The translations under genes and the position numbers were made by a program. From assembly GCA_964348135.1 (NCBI GenBank), contig CAYGBL010000001.1, positions 22-64,021 on the forward strand: DNA of 64,000 nucleotides. Direction: 5' to 3'. The DNA is from an uncultured Actinomycetota bacterium. Lineage in GTDB: Bacteria; Actinomycetota; Aquicultoria; JACQXZ01; CAYGBL01. Under the pieces are notes generated by a model. That model saw only the letters and a program-made list of their open reading frames with translations, ran no database searches and was not told the origin of the DNA. Of this stretch, positions 8,358 through 60,157 are shown in pieces; positions within the stretch are counted from its first letter, which is position 1, and every line of letters starts with the position of its first letter.

Positions 8358-9188
8358 ATGAATGAGATTGTAAAGGTTTCATGCATAAAACATATATACC
8401 CTGACAAGACTGAAATTCATCTTTGCGGCCTGGATATGATTGTAAATGAGCAGGAAAGGGTGGCAATTTTGGGGCCAAGTGGAAGCGGTAAGACTACACT
8501 GCTTAAACATATTCTGGGGCTTTTGGAGCCCACAGAGGGATCCGTTCACGTTCTCGGTGTCAATCCGGTTAAAGAACGAAGCAAGATTCGGGAAAGAATA
8601 GGATTTGTAATGCAAAACGTAGAAGAGCAGCTGGTTAATCCTACTGTTTTTGATGAAATCGCTTTTGCTCCCCTAAACTACGGATATAGTTTTAAAGAAA
8701 CGGCAGGTATGGTAGATACGGTTTTAGAAGACCTGGAGATATTTCATCTCAAAGAAAAGGTGCCACACTATCTTTCAGGAGGAGAGAAGAGAAAGGTTGC
8801 CCTGGCTTCAGCTCTGGTACTTAATCCTGAGCTGCTTGTTCTAGACGAGCCATTTGAAGGTATGGATCCACACTCAAGAAGCGAATTTGTGAGTATTATT
8901 AACCAGCTTAGTAGGGATAGAAAGATGGCAGTGGTGATTACTCTGCACGATGTGAATATTGTTCCCGATGTTTCAGACGTAGTATATCTCATAAGGTTTG
9001 GTGGAGAGATAAGTAAAAGAGGTACACCCAGGCAAATCTTCGAAAACATTGAAGAACTTGCTAGCTTCAATCTGGAACCCCCCATTCTTACAAAACTATT
9101 CTTGAAACTAAGAAAAAATCATCCTGACATATCCGTCCCTACCGATGTTGAGGGAGCAATAAAGGAAATTGAAAAACTCTTTCCTTAA
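8358..9188 (+). CDS. cbiO: ECF transporter ATPase CbiO-like
   Basis: Walker A GPSGSGKTT, ABC signature LSGGEKRKVALA, Walker B LLVLDEP. Confidence 0.9.
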   Translation: MNEIVKVSCIKHIYPDKTEIHLCGLDMIVNEQERVAILGPSGSGKTTLLKHILGLLEPTEGSVHVLGVNPVKERSKIRERIGFVMQNVEEQLVNPTVFDEIAFAPLNYGYSFKETAGMVDTVLEDLEIFHLKEKVPHYLSGGEKRKVALASALVLNPELLVLDEPFEGMDPHSRSEFVSIINQLSRDRKMAVVITLHDVNIVPDVSDVVYLIRFGGEISKRGTPRQIFENIEELASFNLEPPILTKLFLKLRKNHPDISVPTDVEGAIKEIEKLFP

Positions 9189-9414
9189 TAGCAGTTCAGA
9201 ATTACTAGCAGCTTAACTGTCCGGAAAGCTTCTTAGAAAGCATCGTGCAGGGTATAACTAGCATCCAGTGTGCATAATCCGTAGTTACCAGCTTCTAAAC
9301 TCTTGATTTTGTGCTATTATATTTTTCAAATCATTTTTATACGGATAATTCGGAACAAACTCCCAATTCATGACTTACAACTCACTACACGAATCTGAAA
9401 GGAGATGATATAAG

Positions 9415-10302
9415 ATGGCAAGGAAGCTTGAGTTTGAAGGCATACACATTCCCCTGGTAACACCTTTTAAAAACAATAAGCTGGACAGACGAAGTCTTAA
9501 GCGCCTTATTAATCTGGTTATAAAAGAAGGAGCAAGCGGTCTGGTTCCCTGCGGTACAACTGGAGAAGCCCCAACCTTAAGTCATGAGGAACATATGGAA
9601 GTCATACGCCTCACAGTTGAGGAAGCTAATGGTAGAGTTCCAGTGCTGGCCGGAACCGGTTCAAATGAGACTGACAGAGCCATTGAATATACCCGGTATG
9701 CAGAAAAAGTCGGGGCAGATGGAGCTCTGGTAGTAGGCCCTTACTACAACAGACCTACTCAAGCTGGACTCTACGAACACTTTAAAGCGGTTGCCAAGAA
9801 CACCAAGCTCCCCATCGTTATATATAACATACCTATACGGACAGGACGGAACATCGATACAGATACAGTTATAAGGCTCTCGAAGATTCCAAATATAGTA
9901 GGCATAAAAGAAGCAAGTGCTGATATAAATCAGGTAATGAATATCATTAAAGGTACAAACAATTTTACAGTTCTAAGTGGCGAAGACCACATTATCTTTC
10001 CAATCTGCTGCCTGGGAGGACAAGGAGCAATTGCTGCAAGTGCACACGTGGCAACGGCAGAATTTATAAATATGTGGCAGATGGTAGGGGAGAATAGGAT
10101 TAAGGAAGCAAGAGACCTTCACTACAAACTACTTCCTCTAGTGCGGGCTTTCTTTTCTGAAGCCAATCCAGCTCCAATCAAAGCAGCCCTTGCCATGCTG
10201 GGAATAATCTCCTCAAATGAAGTAAGGCTGCCTTTGGTTCCCGCAACAACTAATTGCAGAAATACTATCAAAACCGAACTCAAGAGACTTAAACTTATGT
10301 AG
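9415..10302 (+). CDS. dapA: 4-hydroxy-tetrahydrodipicolinate synthase (DHDPS family lyase)
   Basis: GTTGE motif, YNRP and IYNIP(x)RTG motifs of DapA/NAL family; RBS GGAGATGA upstream. Confidence 0.8.
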   Translation: MARKLEFEGIHIPLVTPFKNNKLDRRSLKRLINLVIKEGASGLVPCGTTGEAPTLSHEEHMEVIRLTVEEANGRVPVLAGTGSNETDRAIEYTRYAEKVGADGALVVGPYYNRPTQAGLYEHFKAVAKNTKLPIVIYNIPIRTGRNIDTDTVIRLSKIPNIVGIKEASADINQVMNIIKGTNNFTVLSGEDHIIFPICCLGGQGAIAASAHVATAEFINMWQMVGENRIKEARDLHYKLLPLVRAFFSEANPAPIKAALAMLGIISSNEVRLPLVPATTNCRNTIKTELKRLKLM

Positions 10303-11500: not shown

Positions 11501-11998
11501 ATGGCTGGAAAAACAGAAGGCAATTTAAAAGAAGCTTTTGCAGGTGAGTCGCAGGCAAATCAAAAGTATCTGGCTTTTTCGACGATAGCTGACAAGGAAG
11601 GCTACAGTCAGGTAGCTAAACTATTCAGAGCTGCAGCTGCGGCTGAGAGTGTGCATGCCCGGAATCATCTTATGGTAATGGCGCAGATTAAAGAGACCCG
11701 GAATAATATTAAGGCAGCCATAGATGGGGAAATGCATGAAAAACAGGTAATGTATCCTGAGTTTATCACGGCAGCAGAAGCGGAAGGAAATGATGATGCA
11801 GCAGAAACTTTTAAATTTGCGTTAGCCGTTGAGACAATCCACGCTGATCTTTACCAAAAAGCCCTCGATAATTTGGGAAAGAATGAGACTGTTGACTACT
11901 GGGTCTGCGGAGGCTGCGGAAATACGGTTGAAAAAGAACCACCCGATAAATGTCCTATATGCGGTGCTCCACGCTCTATGTTTAAGCTTATAAGCTGA
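11501..11998 (+). CDS. rbr: Rubrerythrin
   Basis: N-terminal ferritin-like di-iron domain (EAFAGESQANQKY...E..H) plus C-terminal rubredoxin-like CGGCG...CPICG. Confidence 0.9.
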   Translation: MAGKTEGNLKEAFAGESQANQKYLAFSTIADKEGYSQVAKLFRAAAAAESVHARNHLMVMAQIKETRNNIKAAIDGEMHEKQVMYPEFITAAEAEGNDDAAETFKFALAVETIHADLYQKALDNLGKNETVDYWVCGGCGNTVEKEPPDKCPICGAPRSMFKLIS

Positions 11999-12005
11999 GA
12001 TATTA

Positions 12006-12160
12006 TATAGTTATCGACAAGCCTGCTCTGAGCGAGGTCCAAGGGCTCGAACCATAGGTTATATATAGTTCTCGATTCACGAAGTGTATCCTGAGCATAG
12101 TCGAAGGACTCACTCGAACCATAAAAATTCTTATTCTCGGTCAGCCTGTTTGCTTTTAAC
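12006..12160. repeat. Intergenic dispersed repeat copy A (tandem of two ~62-bp units)
   Basis: ~85% identical over ~145 bp to 45381..45525; each copy is TATAGTT.TCGA...CCTG.GC.A.GTC.AAGG.CTC..GAACCATA unit repeated twice. Confidence 0.8.
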
Positions 12161-12295
12161 AAAAAAGTTGGACGGGAGATGATTCTCATACAAAGTTCGA
12201 CTTTGTGAAAATATACGGGCGATAGGAATAGTTCTGCAATTCAGTATTCTCGGATGTGTATATAAAAACGCTATAAAAACCAAAGGAGGAACGGA

Positions 12296-24328: not shown

Positions 24329-24614
24329 ATTTTGATCCCTTTGCCTCTTTTACATAACTTACGAACCTTGATCCTTGTCTTATAACGTTTTTTTATGCTC
24401 TTTCGGCCAAATATTCACGTGGCCTTTTAAATTGAAATACCACCAAGATTTATACGAACACGGGTTCGTTTATTTTTTAAAGGGAAAACTATTAATATAG
24501 CTTGTATAAAGGCTTAGAATCGATTTCAGAGCGTCTGAGCGAAAGCTGATAAGAGGCTTAGCCATGCGGTTTTATGCGGTTTATACGTTATTTTAAGATA
24601 TATGAGGTTGGGGA

Positions 24615-42218: not shown

Positions 42219-42455
42219 ATAAACGTTCCCAAATTACCAATTAAAATATTATAATCTGCCAATAACACTTAGAAAAAACCCTTGGTTCCTTGCGAGCCGA
42301 GACTTGAACAGCCTTGAAAAGCTCGTTTCAATACCAAAGAGGAAAATAGCCGAACCGCGTTAGCCCGTAGATATTTCCGGGGCGCCTTTGGCTTCTTTCC
42401 CTGAGCAAAATATTTCAATCTATCTCCTTTATAATCTATATTAATACACAATATG

Positions 42456-43298
42456 TTAATTAGTTGCATGTTTGTAATCAAGAACCCAAACTTCTAATTC
42501 CTCAGGTAAATCCTCTTTGGAAATAGTCACCTTGCTTGTACTATGAGCCGTAAAATTTTGAACTACCTCAATTCCTTGAAGGAAACTATCTACTGGAGAA
42601 ATGTTTATTCTGGAAACATCAGTTTTATAATGCATAGGGATTGCTATCTTAGGGTTTATTTGACTTAGAATCTCTCTAGCTTTGTTTCCATCAATAGTAA
42701 AAGTCCCTCCAACTGGGATTAGTAGTACATCAACGCCTTTGAGTTTAGAAATCTGTTCACCGGTTAGCTCATCTTGTCCAAAATCACCCATATGAGCGAA
42801 TCGAATACCTGACAGTTCCCAGATAAAGATGGTGTTAGTTCCTCTTTTTCTTCCTTCTTGCTCATCATGATAGGAGGAGATGCCATCAAACCTAATATTC
42901 TTTGTCTGTTTGCTGCCATTGCCTTTCACAATTTCTGGGTTTCCCTCGACCATACCGATGTTCTTGTGATCATAATGATCATGGCTAATTGTAACTATAT
43001 CAGCCTTAACTGATGAAATCGGATAACCAACGCTTGAATCGTAAGGGTCTGTTACTACTTTAATCTTTCCCTCCTCTTCAATCAGGAAAGAAGAATGTCC
43101 GAGCCAGGTTATAGTTACCTCTCCTTTTCCCTCTTTCTTATCACCAGCACTCTCCATTTCCGTTCCCCTCCTTACCTTGGAACTGTCTTCTTTCAAATCT
43201 TGTGTTTTTTTGCAACCAGCAAAAAGCAGAGCTAATGTTGCACACAGTATGATAGCATACCAGATAATCTTTCTCATAACTTCCTCCCTAAAATGCAT
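42456..43298 (-). CDS. MBL-fold metallo-hydrolase lipoprotein
   Basis: Lipobox LLFAGC; ITWLGHSSFLIEEEGKIKVVTDPY and HDHYDH metal-binding motifs. Confidence 0.75.
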   Translation of the reverse strand: MHFREEVMRKIIWYAIILCATLALLFAGCKKTQDLKEDSSKVRRGTEMESAGDKKEGKGEVTITWLGHSSFLIEEEGKIKVVTDPYDSSVGYPISSVKADIVTISHDHYDHKNIGMVEGNPEIVKGNGSKQTKNIRFDGISSYHDEQEGRKRGTNTIFIWELSGIRFAHMGDFGQDELTGEQISKLKGVDVLLIPVGGTFTIDGNKAREILSQINPKIAIPMHYKTDVSRINISPVDSFLQGIEVVQNFTAHSTSKVTISKEDLPEELEVWVLDYKHATN

Positions 43299-43942: not shown

Positions 43943-45334
43943 TTAGAATATTTTCTTTAATATCCTACCGCCAAGCCTCCGGCTTGCTTTCAGTCCTTCG
44001 GCTGCCAGGGTCTTTGAAAATCCTCGCTGACATAGTGCAGCCAGAGATTGAACCACGTAATCAAGTTGCTCTCTGGTAACTAATAAAGGAGGCTGCAGCC
44101 TGATAACGTTAGGATTATTGAGCGTATAGGCTGTAATAATTTTGAATTCATTTTTAAGGTCACTTGCAACAAGCGAGGCATGGTATTCTTCAAGTAGAGA
44201 TTTTAACTTTTCGGGAAGAAATTGAGGTTGGATAAACTCGACTCCTATCATTAGACCTTTACCTCTGACTTCTCTCACTAAACCTTTGGTCCCTTCCATA
44301 TTTTTCAATTTGAATAGAAATTCATCACCTTTGCTTTTGGTTTCAAAGATTATTTTGCCTCCATCGCGGCAAAGGATATTTATGGTGGCAAGGGCTGCTG
44401 CACAAGCTCTAGCACTGCCTCCGAATGTCGAGGTGTGCAAGAGGCATTTATCAAGTCCTCCATAGGCCTTTTTCCATACTGAATCGGTCATTACCACAGC
44501 CCCTATTGGAATCAGTGCTCCGCTCAAAGCTTTAGCCAGACAGAGAATATCGGGTTCTACTCCTTCGTGTTCACAGGCAAACATTGCACCCGTCCGGCCT
44601 AAGCCTGTCTGTACTTCATCAAGGATAAGAAGTGCCTCATATTTTCTGCAGATTTTCTCAACCTCTTTTAAGTAACCCGGAGGAGGTACAATAATACCTC
44701 CTTCTCCTTGTATTGGTTCAACTATAAAAGCAGCATATCCGCCCTTTTTAAGTTGGTTTTCAAGTGCTGAAGGATCTCCAAAGGGAATTTCATGAAATCC
44801 GGGAAGCAAGGGCTCAAAGGGAGTTCGATACTTCTCCTTTCCAGTAGCAGATAGAGCACCGAAACTCTTACCATGATAAGAGTTTCGCGTGTAAATTATC
44901 TTACTTTTTTCCGTAGAAGCTCTTGCTACTTTAAGTGCGGCTTCTACTGCTTCAGCTCCGGAATTGCAAAAGAATGTTCTCCGGAGCTTTCCGGGCGTGA
45001 TTTCGCAGAGATTTTTTGCCAGTGCTGCAGTCAAAGGTGATAATGCTGCCTGCAGTATATTGGGTCGGTTGTTTACCTCATCCACTGCTTTGATTATTTC
45101 AGGGTTGTTGTGACCAAGAGATATTGAACCGTAACCTCCTAGGAAGTCAAGGTAGGCCTCTCCTTGAAGATAGACTGTAACACCTTCTGCTCTTTCATAG
45201 ACCTCATCAAGACCGACAAGTTCCAGGGTTAAGTCTAAGTCAGGATTGAAATAGGATTGATACCACTCCTTAACTTTTTCTCTTGATGCTCCCAAAGCTT
45301 CATCCATACTTACCAAATTATTGCTAATCGGCAC
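43943..45334 (-). CDS. Class-III (PLP-dependent) aminotransferase
   Basis: LILDEVQTGLGRTGAMFACEHEGVEPDILCLAKAL with PLP-lysine context; AT-III fold length. Confidence 0.85.
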   Translation of the reverse strand: MPISNNLVSMDEALGASREKVKEWYQSYFNPDLDLTLELVGLDEVYERAEGVTVYLQGEAYLDFLGGYGSISLGHNNPEIIKAVDEVNNRPNILQAALSPLTAALAKNLCEITPGKLRRTFFCNSGAEAVEAALKVARASTEKSKIIYTRNSYHGKSFGALSATGKEKYRTPFEPLLPGFHEIPFGDPSALENQLKKGGYAAFIVEPIQGEGGIIVPPPGYLKEVEKICRKYEALLILDEVQTGLGRTGAMFACEHEGVEPDILCLAKALSGALIPIGAVVMTDSVWKKAYGGLDKCLLHTSTFGGSARACAAALATINILCRDGGKIIFETKSKGDEFLFKLKNMEGTKGLVREVRGKGLMIGVEFIQPQFLPEKLKSLLEEYHASLVASDLKNEFKIITAYTLNNPNVIRLQPPLLVTREQLDYVVQSLAALCQRGFSKTLAAEGLKASRRLGGRILKKIF

Positions 45335-45380
45335 TGCTCTTTTCTCCTTTTCTAGCTTTTATCACAGAACCAAAGTTAAA

Positions 45381-45525
45381 TATAGTAACCAACAAGCCTG
45401 CCCTGAGCAAAGTCGAAGGGCTTGAACCATAGGTTATATAGTTATCGATTTGCGAAGTGTATCCTGAGCATATTCAAAGGACTGACTCGAACAATAAAAA
45501 TATCTATTCTCGGTTGTCCTTTTGA
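45381..45525. repeat. Intergenic dispersed repeat copy B (tandem of two ~62-bp units)
   Basis: ~85% identical to 12006..12160; located between aminotransferase start and CorA stop. Confidence 0.8.
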
Positions 45526-45545: not shown

Positions 45546-46514
45546 CTACCACCATTTGACCTTTTTAAAATAGACTATTATCGAGAAAGCGATGATAACC
45601 ATAAGTAATAATACGGCATAATAGCCATATCTCCAAGTCAATTCTGGCATATTGCGAAAATTCATTTCGTATATGCCCGAAATAAGGGTTAACGGCATAA
45701 AAACGAAGGCAACGATGGTAAGCTTTTTCATTACCTCGTTTAAACGGTTTGAGATGGTGCTCAGGTATATATCCATAGCTCCACTGATTACGTCCCTGTC
45801 TGTGTCTATCAGGTCAATTATCCTTATTAAATGGTCGTGAATGTCCGCGAAATAGATTTGAACATGTTCGCGTATAAATGAGGAATTGTAATGAGTTAGA
45901 GATACTATGATTTCTCTTTCTGGTGAAATTATCTTTCTCAGGTGAAGTAGCTGATGTTTGTGGGTAAAGAGGCTTCTTAAATGATCCGGCAGAGGATTTT
46001 CGAATATTTCGTCCTCTAGAAGATCAATTTTGTTGCTAATAATATCAAGCAAGGGAAAATAACCGTCTACAAGAGTATCAAGGATTGTATGCAGAATCCA
46101 ATCTATTCCCTTCTTTAATAGGCCAGGGTCCTTTAAAGAGCGTTGATATACCTTATCTAATAAAAGTATTTTCTCGTTGTGAATCGAGACCAGGTAATTT
46201 GTACCTACAAAGAAGTCAACCTCCGCAGTTGTTGCTTCTTCGGACTCAAACTCCTCAATAAATGCATGCCAGATAAGAAAAACATAATCTTCATAATTGT
46301 CAATTTTTGGGAGATTGAATTTGGTTCTAGAATCTTCTAAAGCTAGGGGGTGAAAGTGAAAGGTTTCTTTCAGGAATTGAAAGTCAGTATCTCCGGGGTT
46401 TTCGAAATCAAGCCATACTATTGAATCGCGTTCCCGCAATCTTTCAGGTACTGAGTGTAGGTCAGCTTCTTCAGACAAACCTCTATCTAAGCTATAGGTT
46501 AATATTTTAACCAT
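45546..46514 (-). CDS. corA: CorA-family divalent cation transporter with variant EMN motif
   Basis: Cytoplasmic N-domain + 2 C-terminal TM helices; signature loop reads GIYEMNF (canonical YGMNF). Confidence 0.75.
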   Translation of the reverse strand: MVKILTYSLDRGLSEEADLHSVPERLRERDSIVWLDFENPGDTDFQFLKETFHFHPLALEDSRTKFNLPKIDNYEDYVFLIWHAFIEEFESEEATTAEVDFFVGTNYLVSIHNEKILLLDKVYQRSLKDPGLLKKGIDWILHTILDTLVDGYFPLLDIISNKIDLLEDEIFENPLPDHLRSLFTHKHQLLHLRKIISPEREIIVSLTHYNSSFIREHVQIYFADIHDHLIRIIDLIDTDRDVISGAMDIYLSTISNRLNEVMKKLTIVAFVFMPLTLISGIYEMNFRNMPELTWRYGYYAVLLLMVIIAFSIIVYFKKVKWW

Positions 46515-57734: not shown

Positions 57735-57811
57735 TGGTCGGGGTGGGCAGATTTGAACTGCCGACCTCCGGACCCCCAGCCCGTTGCGCTACCAAACTGC
57801 GCCACACCCCG
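57735..57811 (-). tRNA. tRNA-Pro (anticodon GGG), CCA encoded
   Basis: Cloverleaf reconstructed by hand: acceptor CGGGGTG/CACCCCG, D-arm GCGC-AGTTTGGTA-GCGC, anticodon loop CTGGGGG (GGG, G37), T-arm GGCAG-TTCAAAT-CTGCC, 3' ACCA. Confidence 0.85.
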
Positions 57812-59865: not shown

Positions 59866-60157
59866 TGGTCTTACCGATTACCTAATTCCAAACGCCCAAA
59901 GCTAAAGTGGTCTATTAACAATTTGGGTTAACACTTGACTAAATAGAGATGAAGGGGCGAAGGTGAAGCAAGGAGAAGACCGTGTCGGAGCCTCGCTATG
60001 TACCTTCTGGTTAAAGTTTTTGGTTATGCGCGAGGCGAGACTCGAGCGGCGGCTAAGTTTAAATATTGCTGGATTGAGAAGGTGCCGACCGCGTGTCTTC
60101 GACTGCTTTGCCTGAGCAAAATGTGTCAACCTATCTCCTTTATTATTCAGCTAATGG

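Follow-up and report, generated by a model that had tools for sequence, protein, structure and literature searches.

Two intergenic repeats of an uncultured Actinomycetota bacterium probably belong to a REP-like family of nested hairpins

The 64,000-nt stretch of DNA from an uncultured Actinomycetota bacterium that we analyzed (hereafter the window; contig CAYGBL010000001.1) contains two copies of a composite intergenic repeat of about 146 nt, and it raises the question of what kind of element these copies represent. Our analysis indicates that both loci are small clusters of a family of hairpin repeats that resembles repetitive extragenic palindromes (REPs) and the bacterial interspersed mosaic elements (BIMEs), a reading to which we assign a probability of roughly 0.6. 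The building block of this family is a short hairpin, designated H, with a conserved head and a variable stem; the repeat is of an ordinary class and is probably new among the REP-like hairpin repeats.

The two copies are direct repeats on the + strand (12005-12152 and 45380-45524), and a repeat search resolved the pair into an 89-nt piece with 84% and a 61-nt piece with 87% identity, with a 2-nt indel between them. The initial annotation of this DNA had described two repeats of about 145 bp with about 85% identity, each made of two consecutive units, and our data agree with it on both counts. Each copy comprises a unit A of 51 nt and a unit B of 60 nt, which start with TATAGT(T/A) and end with GAAC(C/A)ATA, followed by a truncated third unit. 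Alignment of the four units (about 55-65 nt each) shows that the B units differ from the A units by one 5-nt and one 4-nt insertion and that all four share the frame TATAGTT-N-TCGA ... CCTGAGC-N3-GTCGAAGG-RCT ... GAACCATA. For the pattern CTGAGCNNNNTCNAAGGNCT, we counted four occurrences in the window, compared to an expectation of 0.39; none of 100 shuffles reached this count. Since the truncated third unit is present in both copies, the whole 146-nt composite, not a single unit, was copied as a block. The sequences flanking the two copies are unrelated to each other. Copy 1 starts 7 nt past the stop codon of a rubrerythrin gene (11501-11998, + strand) and lies upstream of a 56-codon open reading frame (ORF); copy 2 is located between the start of an aminotransferase gene (43943-45334, - strand) and the stop codon of a gene for CorA (45546-46514, - strand), about 21 nt from the latter. 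The orientation relative to the adjoining genes is thus opposite for the two copies. Copy 2 is identical in the loci L001 and L002.

Relatives of the units are widespread. A unit pattern with 21 specified bases that fits the four window units (CTGAGC-N3-4-TC-N-AAGG-N-CT-N0-6-GAAC-N-ATA) was found at 27 loci among the species representatives of GTDB, a set of matches from which the source genome itself is absent. All of these loci derive from metagenome-assembled genomes (MAGs), and they represent about ten phyla, with labels that include patescibacterial groups (Curtissbacteria, Levyibacteriota, Saccharibacteria, Doudnabacteria, and other Patescibacteria), proteobacterial groups (Gammaproteobacteria, Betaproteobacteria, and delta proteobacteria), Omnitrophota, Dependentiae, Nitrospirae, Dehalococcoidia, Flavobacteriales, and Actinomycetota. 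Flanks outside the search pattern are homologous as well (GTTCTCGAC-AAGCCTG(T/C)C upstream), and the B-type unit represented by unit 1B recurs in two Omnitrophota MAG loci (L026 and L029). A profile built from 28 foreign units detected the four window units at E = 2e-10, 6e-8, 9e-8, and 1e-3, without any other hit in the window. Degenerate fragments suspected by the initial annotation near positions 24520 and 42385 are not supported: a profile of the units calls neither of them, and the stretch at 42386-42435 has its counterpart at 60097-60146 instead. The palindrome AGTCgaagGACT, which had been listed as a feature of the repeat, is confined to unit 1B. The shorter core CCTGAGC-N2-3-GTCGAAGG-N-CT (17-18 nt) is present at 120 or more metagenome loci; viral contigs contributed 7 matches only, so that the core is not typical of phages, and blastn searches with the window copy against plasmids gave no match. 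In isolates, the core occurs as an inverted doublet in Sphingobium, Sphingomonas, Comamonas, Polaromonas, Variovorax, and Methylobacter, with 5-16 doublet places in most records of Sphingobium megaplasmids or chromids.

What these sequences have in common is hairpin H, an imperfect palindrome of 20-26 nt with the layout 5'-S-GAGC-N2-3-G(T/C)CGA-S'-3'. The arms S and S' are complementary over 3-7 bp or more and can have almost any sequence (e.g., GTCCT/AGGAC, GCCCT/AGGGC, GGGCT/AGCCC, GTGCT/AGCAC, and ATCCT/AGGAT, or GTTC/GAAC, CTTC/GAAG, ACCAT/ATGGT, CGTCCC/GGGGCG, and TCATTCC/GGAATGG); the head of 11-12 nt that they enclose is conserved in bacteria of many phyla. The fetched loci, 985 kb in total, contain the head motif 437 times compared to about 41 times in local shuffles, and H with a flanking stem of 4 bp or longer 293 times compared to about once, with 132 of these 293 stem-bearing hairpins having been picked by no search pattern. 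We assessed covariation in a random draw of 150 distinct head matches to which no stem filter had been applied. Over the five stem pairs, 79.7% of the cells were paired, compared to 61.9% in column shuffles, and the covariation score was 0.454 compared to 0.177, values that none of the 500 shuffles attained in either case. Pairing fell to 34-58% when the 3' partner was slid by 1-3 columns, and changes on both sides were found in five of six stem pairs. At position 4 of the stem of H read on the + strand, hereafter H(+), T.G outnumbers C.A by 54 to 6. Beside the stem, the head reads 5'-Y-GA-G...C-GA-R-3', an arrangement that favours tandem sheared G.A/A.G pairs, and the loop measures 5-6 nt when C..GU is taken as unpaired.

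In the long units, a core H(+) is enclosed by a second, outer stem in the arrangement P1-TCGAC ... GCTC-P1'. Pairs 1-5 of this stem are paired in 55-77% of the instances, with three to six pair types each (e.g., ATTCC/GGAAT, ATGTC/GACAT, GTGG/CCAC, and TCATT/AATGA), compared to 11-48% in a slid control. On the opposite strand, the envelope reads P1'rc-GAGC-[insert]-GTCGA-P1rc and is itself an H; a long unit therefore consists of an H(+) with a leader of 6-9 nt (GCCTGT, GCCTGC, GTTTAT, and others) that sits in the apical loop of an H(-). This opposite-strand nesting is seen in all four window units. H was found 36 times inside a host hairpin of the opposite strand and three times inside one of the same strand, and these three cases are really tandem arrays. 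Host hairpins that carry only a loop are present in the same genomes as the nested ones, e.g., GTTC-TCGACAAGCTC-GAAC in L021, L009, and L004. The B-type units possess one more layer that resembles a head; it reads GAGC-GAGC ... TTCGCGA-GTCGA in L029, whereas the window units have GAGT-GAGT ... there. We also considered a pseudoknot or alternative pairing between TCGAC and GTCGA and set it aside: the variants TCGCG, TCGGC, and TCGCC are uncompensated, a weak test since GTCGA was fixed by the search pattern.

With these definitions at hand, the components of the two window copies are as follows.

12005..12152, + strand: copy 1, composite of unit A, unit B, and a truncated third unit, between the rubrerythrin gene and the small ORF
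12006..12056, + strand: unit 1A, E = 6e-8 with the profile from other genomes only
12006-12012 with 12050-12056: outer stem TATAGTT / AACCATA of unit 1A, enclosing TCGAC...GCTC
12025..12046, + strand: inner H(+) of unit 1A, degenerate (GCTCT-GAGC-GAG-GTCcA-AGGGC), missed by the scan for H
12064..12123, + strand: unit 1B, B-type, outer stem as in unit 1A, lengthened by TCACGAAG at its 5' side and by ACTC at its 3' side
12089..12108, + strand: inner H(+) of unit 1B, intact (TCCT-GAGC-ATA-GTCGA-AGGA), found by the scan for H
12131..12152, + strand: truncated third unit of copy 1 (TTATTCTCGGTCAGCCTGTTTG), like the 5' part of unit A (TATAGTTATCGACAAGCCTGCTCTG), included in the repeat alignment
45380..45524, + strand: copy 2, composite, flanked by the start of the aminotransferase gene and the stop of the CorA gene (- strand genes)
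45381..45431, + strand: unit 2A, E = 2e-10, with the 5' arm of the outer stem partly decayed (TATAGTA-A-CCAAC)
45400..45421, + strand: inner H(+) of unit 2A, intact (GCCCT-GAGC-AAA-GTCGA-AGGGC), found by the scan for H
45437..45496, + strand: unit 2B, B-type, E = 1e-3
45462..45481, + strand: inner H(+) of unit 2B, degenerate (TCCT-GAGC-ATA-tTCaA-AGGA), missed by the scan for H
45504..45524, + strand: truncated third unit of copy 2

On the - strand, unit 1A reads as the H-like hairpin TATGGTTC-GAGC-[insert]-GTCGA-TAACTATA. Each copy retains one intact inner H(+) (in units 1B and 2A), and the other one is mutated at conserved positions of the head (units 1A and 2B); in unit 1A, the conserved G of GTCGA is replaced by C. 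Nearest-neighbour folding of the window copies and of their units, as RNA and as DNA, yielded z scores from -2.0 to +0.8, no better than those of shuffled sequences. The mutated H(+) of each copy, the partly decayed outer stem of unit 2A, the weak folding, and, as described below, the lack of a further copy in about 9 kb of additional contig and of shared synteny in relatives together suggest that the window copies are old, drifting passengers in decay and not sequences that selection maintains at either site.

Aside from nested units, the relatives include singlets, inverted doublets, and tandem arrays of alternating orientation. The inverted doublets keep CC.CC and GG.GG mismatches, so that each arm can fold alone. 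A tandem array with alternating orientations and a period of 87 nt is present in a Saccharibacteria MAG (L014, 6600-6900); this array and one at 2040-2210 of L021, which has a period of 57 nt, are built of plain hairpins (ATTCTTCGAGCTTGTCGAGAAGT) and nested units in alternation. The array of L021 is located just upstream of a gene whose product has a NusA-looking N-terminus as judged by eye. Several family copies per 8 kb are found in L019 and L025. Both loci derive from the Flavobacteriales MAG NORP67, in which inverted doublets tagged with TGTC are present in nearly every intergenic gap (L019 2239-2301 and 3651-3726; L025 5334-7553) and bracket ordinary metabolic genes, as in a REP-rich genome. 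Among isolates, the replicon pTomTYG72a of Sphingobium sp. TomTYG72 offers an example (L164 1500-1590, corresponding to AP027337.1 522977-523066): an unannotated inverted H doublet with a central spacer of 30 nt, placed between the convergent genes for a lysophospholipase and rpoN2, and one of 14 doublet places on this 952-kb replicon.

Counting cores that lie between two ORFs, as judged from crude ORF calls, we found 28 co-oriented with and 34 antisense to the adjoining genes, 24 between convergent genes, and 17 between divergent genes. Since this distribution is about random, the element has no strand preference relative to transcription. Another 56 cores fall inside called ORFs, many of which we tentatively attribute to spurious long ORFs in G+C-rich contigs; where the ORF calls are reliable, the relatives are mostly intergenic. 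No neighbour gene recurs beside the cores beyond those for ABC ATPases, acyl-CoA dehydrogenases, and similar proteins.

In these properties, H resembles the REP, BIME, and REPIN sequences of Proteobacteria, e.g., the REPs of Escherichia coli and Pseudomonas. Like them, it is a short extragenic imperfect palindrome that carries no gene, it occurs as singlets, as inverted doublets with the capacity to form a single long hairpin, and in alternating mosaic clusters, and its stems covary between subfamilies. The initial annotation had left the choice between an element of the MITE (miniature inverted-repeat transposable element) or REP type and a conserved structured RNA or terminator module; of these, the REP type is favoured because the palindromes are short and imperfect, mostly extragenic, independent of orientation, and clustered, with no transposase nearby, the last of which had been stated before and is in line with what we see near the units. 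H differs from known REPs in several respects. In contrast to GTAG-tagged REPs, neither the window nor the relatives show a GTAG beside H; the conserved part of H is the apical head GAGC-N2-3-GYCGA and not the 5' foot; its head is present in many phyla, whereas most REP families are limited to a genus or an order; and, in contrast to REPs linked to REP-associated tyrosine transposases (RAYTs), no flanking RAYT (REPtron) was found in about 1 Mb of loci, and the copy number in the source genome appears low.

Two REP superfamilies, tagged with GTAG and with CGTC/TGTC, have been distinguished (PMC3733652). As the text of that study describes them, CGTC REPs, of which there are four families, are mostly head-to-head dimers with AT-initial stems and without a known transposase, and sphingomonads are among their hosts (PMC3733652); their hallmarks are an unpaired terminal tag (CGTC, TGTC, or CCTC), a stem of 8-9 bp that begins with A-T and T-A pairs, a loop of 4-5 nt, and a CCA tail; the CGTC/TGTC superfamily also includes dRS3 of Neisseria and RPE-4/-6 of Rickettsia (Di Nocera et al., 2013; PMC3733652). 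Measured against these descriptions, H possibly belongs within or near the CGTC/TGTC-tagged REPs. TGTC and an AT-initial stem accompany H in L019, L025, and L104, GAC(A/G) follows the outer stem in metagenome relatives of the window element, the H relatives share the described prevalence of head-to-head dimers and the lack of a known dedicated transposase, and sphingomonads, listed as CGTC hosts, carry H doublets. By the same descriptions, the window copies are set apart, since they have neither the tag nor a CCA tail: CCTGC or GTGTAT precedes the inner H and AACC or TTTT the outer hairpins. Their outer stem TATAGTT/AACCATA has seven positions, including one A.C, and starts with T-A followed by A-T. 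The text of PMC3733652 does not mention a tandem G.A head, and no match to the H motif was found in text or supplement. A further parallel is provided by hairpins that flank class-3 TnpA_Y1 genes, e.g., CCGAG-CCGC-GA-CC-GTAA-GG-GA-GCGG, of which Solibacter usitatus possesses about 600 copies (Quentin et al., 2018; PMC6006769). Like H, these combine a variable stem, a 2x2 GA/GA internal loop, two base pairs, and a small loop, and their 5' CNGAG resembles CTGAG of the H core; their sequence differs, however, and the likeness of H to them is one of layout. The H family was not found in Rfam 15 or in searchable REP surveys, and literature searches with DNA strings, peptide strings, and the GCGAAGC mini-hairpin yielded nothing relevant.

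A conserved head combined with a covarying stem points to a hairpin that is recognised in single-stranded form and on one strand. In the mechanism that we infer from the arrangement of the units, the hairpin would form on one strand of single-stranded DNA, for which the excess of T.G over C.A (54 vs 6) may be cited, and a trans-acting HUH-type enzyme would recognise it via the head, much as has been proposed for REPs and RAYT/Y1 HUH transposases. New copies would land preferentially in the loop of a resident hairpin in opposite orientation, and arrays might then grow by slippage or recombination.

How do other explanations fare against the same data? The most serious rival, which we nevertheless consider unlikely, is a structured non-coding RNA (a cis-regulatory element, a small RNA, or a protein-binding hairpin) whose GAGC...GUCGA head is functional and whose repeats would mark multiple genes or sites. 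The conserved head and the covarying stems suit this view, as does the T.G excess at position 4 of the H(+) stem, which points to a single folding strand, and the tandem G.A next to a short capped helix resembles a common protein-binding RNA motif. The strand asymmetry would, however, be just as likely if the hairpin were recognised on single-stranded DNA. Moreover, the family is oriented at random with respect to genes, the two window copies have opposite orientations, half of the window H heads are mutated at conserved positions, the nested and inverted layouts place H on both strands, and promoter-like matches are weak and at chance frequency (2 compared to 1.1-1.4 expected). At the gathering threshold, Rfam 15 reported only tRNAs in the window and in 20 related loci, and neither the window element nor the related element of L157 matched any family at E <= 10. 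A tRNA-like reading of GGTTCGAGCC (- strand) was discarded; ARAGORN finds only a tRNA-Pro at 57735-57811. Intrinsic terminators or attenuators that are similar by chance and follow the rubrerythrin and CorA genes are a very improbable alternative. Each copy has a stop codon nearby (at 7 nt and about 21 nt, respectively), and both contain a 3' hairpin (GGACT..CTCGAAC..ATTCTCGG..CC) that is followed by a T-rich sequence on the + strand. Yet a scan for intrinsic terminators detected no G+C-rich hairpin with a direct T-run in either copy, copy 2 is antisense to its flanking genes, which puts the T-run on the wrong strand, 17 family cases lie between divergent genes, and a terminator does not need a conserved head of 11-12 nt. 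With no Rfam match, no hairpin followed by a T-run, opposite orientations, no strand bias, and weak folding, the conserved structured RNA or terminator invoked by the initial annotation finds no support. A tandemly arranged, small self-cleaving ribozyme of hammerhead affinity (CUGA ... GAA and tandem G.A by a short helix) has hardly any credibility left. The core does contain CUGA and CGAA, the L157 element reads CCUGAUGAG...CGAAAGG, and a tandem arrangement is typical of some ribozymes; however, no hammerhead or other ribozyme model responded at E <= 10, and whereas a hammerhead has CUGANGA and GAAA cores around a three-stem junction with a UH cleavage site, the core CUGAGC..GUCGAAGG is devoid of G8/A9 and of a GAAA-stem III connection, so that no three-way junction can be drawn.

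The two remaining rivals concern the origin of the copies. A classical MITE with the termini TATAGTT...AACCATA, moved by a DDE transposase that is encoded elsewhere, would account for dispersed units bounded by inverted repeats without a transposase nearby, and like Correia/NEMIS, RUP, and ERIC the window units are small, dispersed, non-coding, and intergenic and have inverted termini. Those elements, in contrast, are single units of 100-150 nt whose terminal inverted repeats are conserved and at least 20 nt long, and they have target-site duplications (TA for Correia). The ends of the H units are wholly different between genomes and still complementary, which fits a covarying stem and not a transposase-binding sequence; a target-site duplication, which the initial annotation had proposed to look for, flanks neither copy; and the units measure 51-60 nt, stand head to tail, are nested, and also exist as bare 20-nt hairpins. 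In about 1 Mb of loci, there is no larger element bounded by these units and no insertion sequence with these ends. We regard the MITE reading, strictly taken, as largely refuted and improbable. The initial annotation had named a simple local duplication, with no copies beyond these two, as the outcome that would refute it. In favour of such a local or segmental duplication of a single intergenic region, about 73 kb of the source genome contain two composites only, but homologous units, the rare B-type included, are present in unrelated phyla, and the flanks of the two copies are unrelated. Cross-phylum matches refute this explanation, to which we give the least credence of all.

Several observations weigh against our assignment of the window loci to a REP/BIME-like family. 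The window copies carry neither GTAG nor a CGTC/TGTC tag, and, as described above, their folding does not exceed that of shuffles. High copy number is not evident in the source genome, for which about 9 kb of additional contig provided no further copy beyond the two composites in about 73 kb. Many of the metagenome instances may stem from a few masters, which would inflate the cell-based covariation counts, and the geometry of the head, which would hold tandem sheared G.A/A.G pairs on an invariant G-C pair with a 5-6-nt loop, is predicted from sequence. No transposase or RAYT was found associated with H in about 1 Mb of loci, and the mobilisation step is therefore purely inferential; where H flanks an ORF on either side, the ORF is a housekeeping gene. 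A scan of all loci for the Y1 HUH motif identified, by regular expression, one RAYT-like ORF (L150, reverse strand, nt 9061-9933, with the motifs GNHFHLLV ... YFWGDRF ... YIDLNP), which is without flanking H and has two H at a distance of 7.6 kb. Among the ORFs listed for L108, where two cores are inverted 1.1 kb apart, none is transposase-like, a result that does not cover the stretch separating these cores (1070-2142). Finally, no presence/absence polymorphism or empty site was found via relatives of the aminotransferase. Relatives with a 62-77% identical aminotransferase (the nearest named one being an Actinomycetota MAG with 67% identity) do not share the upstream synteny, so that this comparison is uninformative, and apparent indels between L160 and L161 proved to be N-masked gaps.

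A locus with a 77% identical aminotransferase (L157, Logan SRR5581519) carries a different family member at 2890-2990, between genes for an MBL-fold protein and a DUF881 protein. This member contains CCTGATGAGTCCTTCGAC...GCTCAG...CGAAAGG, a hammerhead-like string without an Rfam hammerhead match, and it has no counterpart at the equivalent position of the window. The sequence TGCTTTTAACAA (12150-12161), which adjoins copy 1 on its 3' side, differs by a single deletion from the boxA antitermination consensus TGCTCTTTAACAA; it is absent after copy 2, probably belongs to the flank, and may be due to chance. The window also contains a 50-nt pair with 84% identity (42386-42435 and 60097-60146) that represents, on the - strand, an AAGGAG ribosome-binding site, a TTG start codon, and the first 12 or so codons of a 70-aa ORF (42269..42481) and a 75-aa ORF (59902..60129), both small. 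The copy at 60097 holds CTTCGAC..CCTGAGCAAA, half of the repeat motif; the unit profile calls neither site.

The consequence of the repeats for the rubrerythrin and CorA genes is likely small. By analogy with the REPs of E. coli, any local effect of these hairpins 3' of the stop codons would be that of an mRNA 3' stabiliser, an insulator, or a ribosome-stalling element. An ORF of 97 codons (11896..12189, - strand) spans copy 1 and may be a reading frame over the repeat; such frames may get predicted as hypothetical proteins of metagenomes, and a class of recurrent hypothetical peptides may have its origin in translations of the head, which yield strings such as ...LSLSK..., ...FDKLR..., and ...FDYAQD.... 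The signature stem-GAGC-N2-3-GYCGA-stem can be used for masking repeats in MAGs of many phyla. The cross-phylum conservation of the head and the systematic inverted nesting, neither of which we found described in searchable sources, may interest specialists. More tentatively, and with the odds on balance against it, H could be a pan-bacterial element whose head would be recognised by an enzyme or host factor acting in trans and which would spread without a linked RAYT, preferentially by inverted insertion into resident apical loops; it would then constitute a so far undescribed REP superfamily that is defined by its head and not by a foot tag. H-bearing isolates such as Sphingobium make the element testable. 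Head-defined and mutually nested REPs that cross phyla would point to a mobilising or binding factor unlike the RAYTs that read GTAG.

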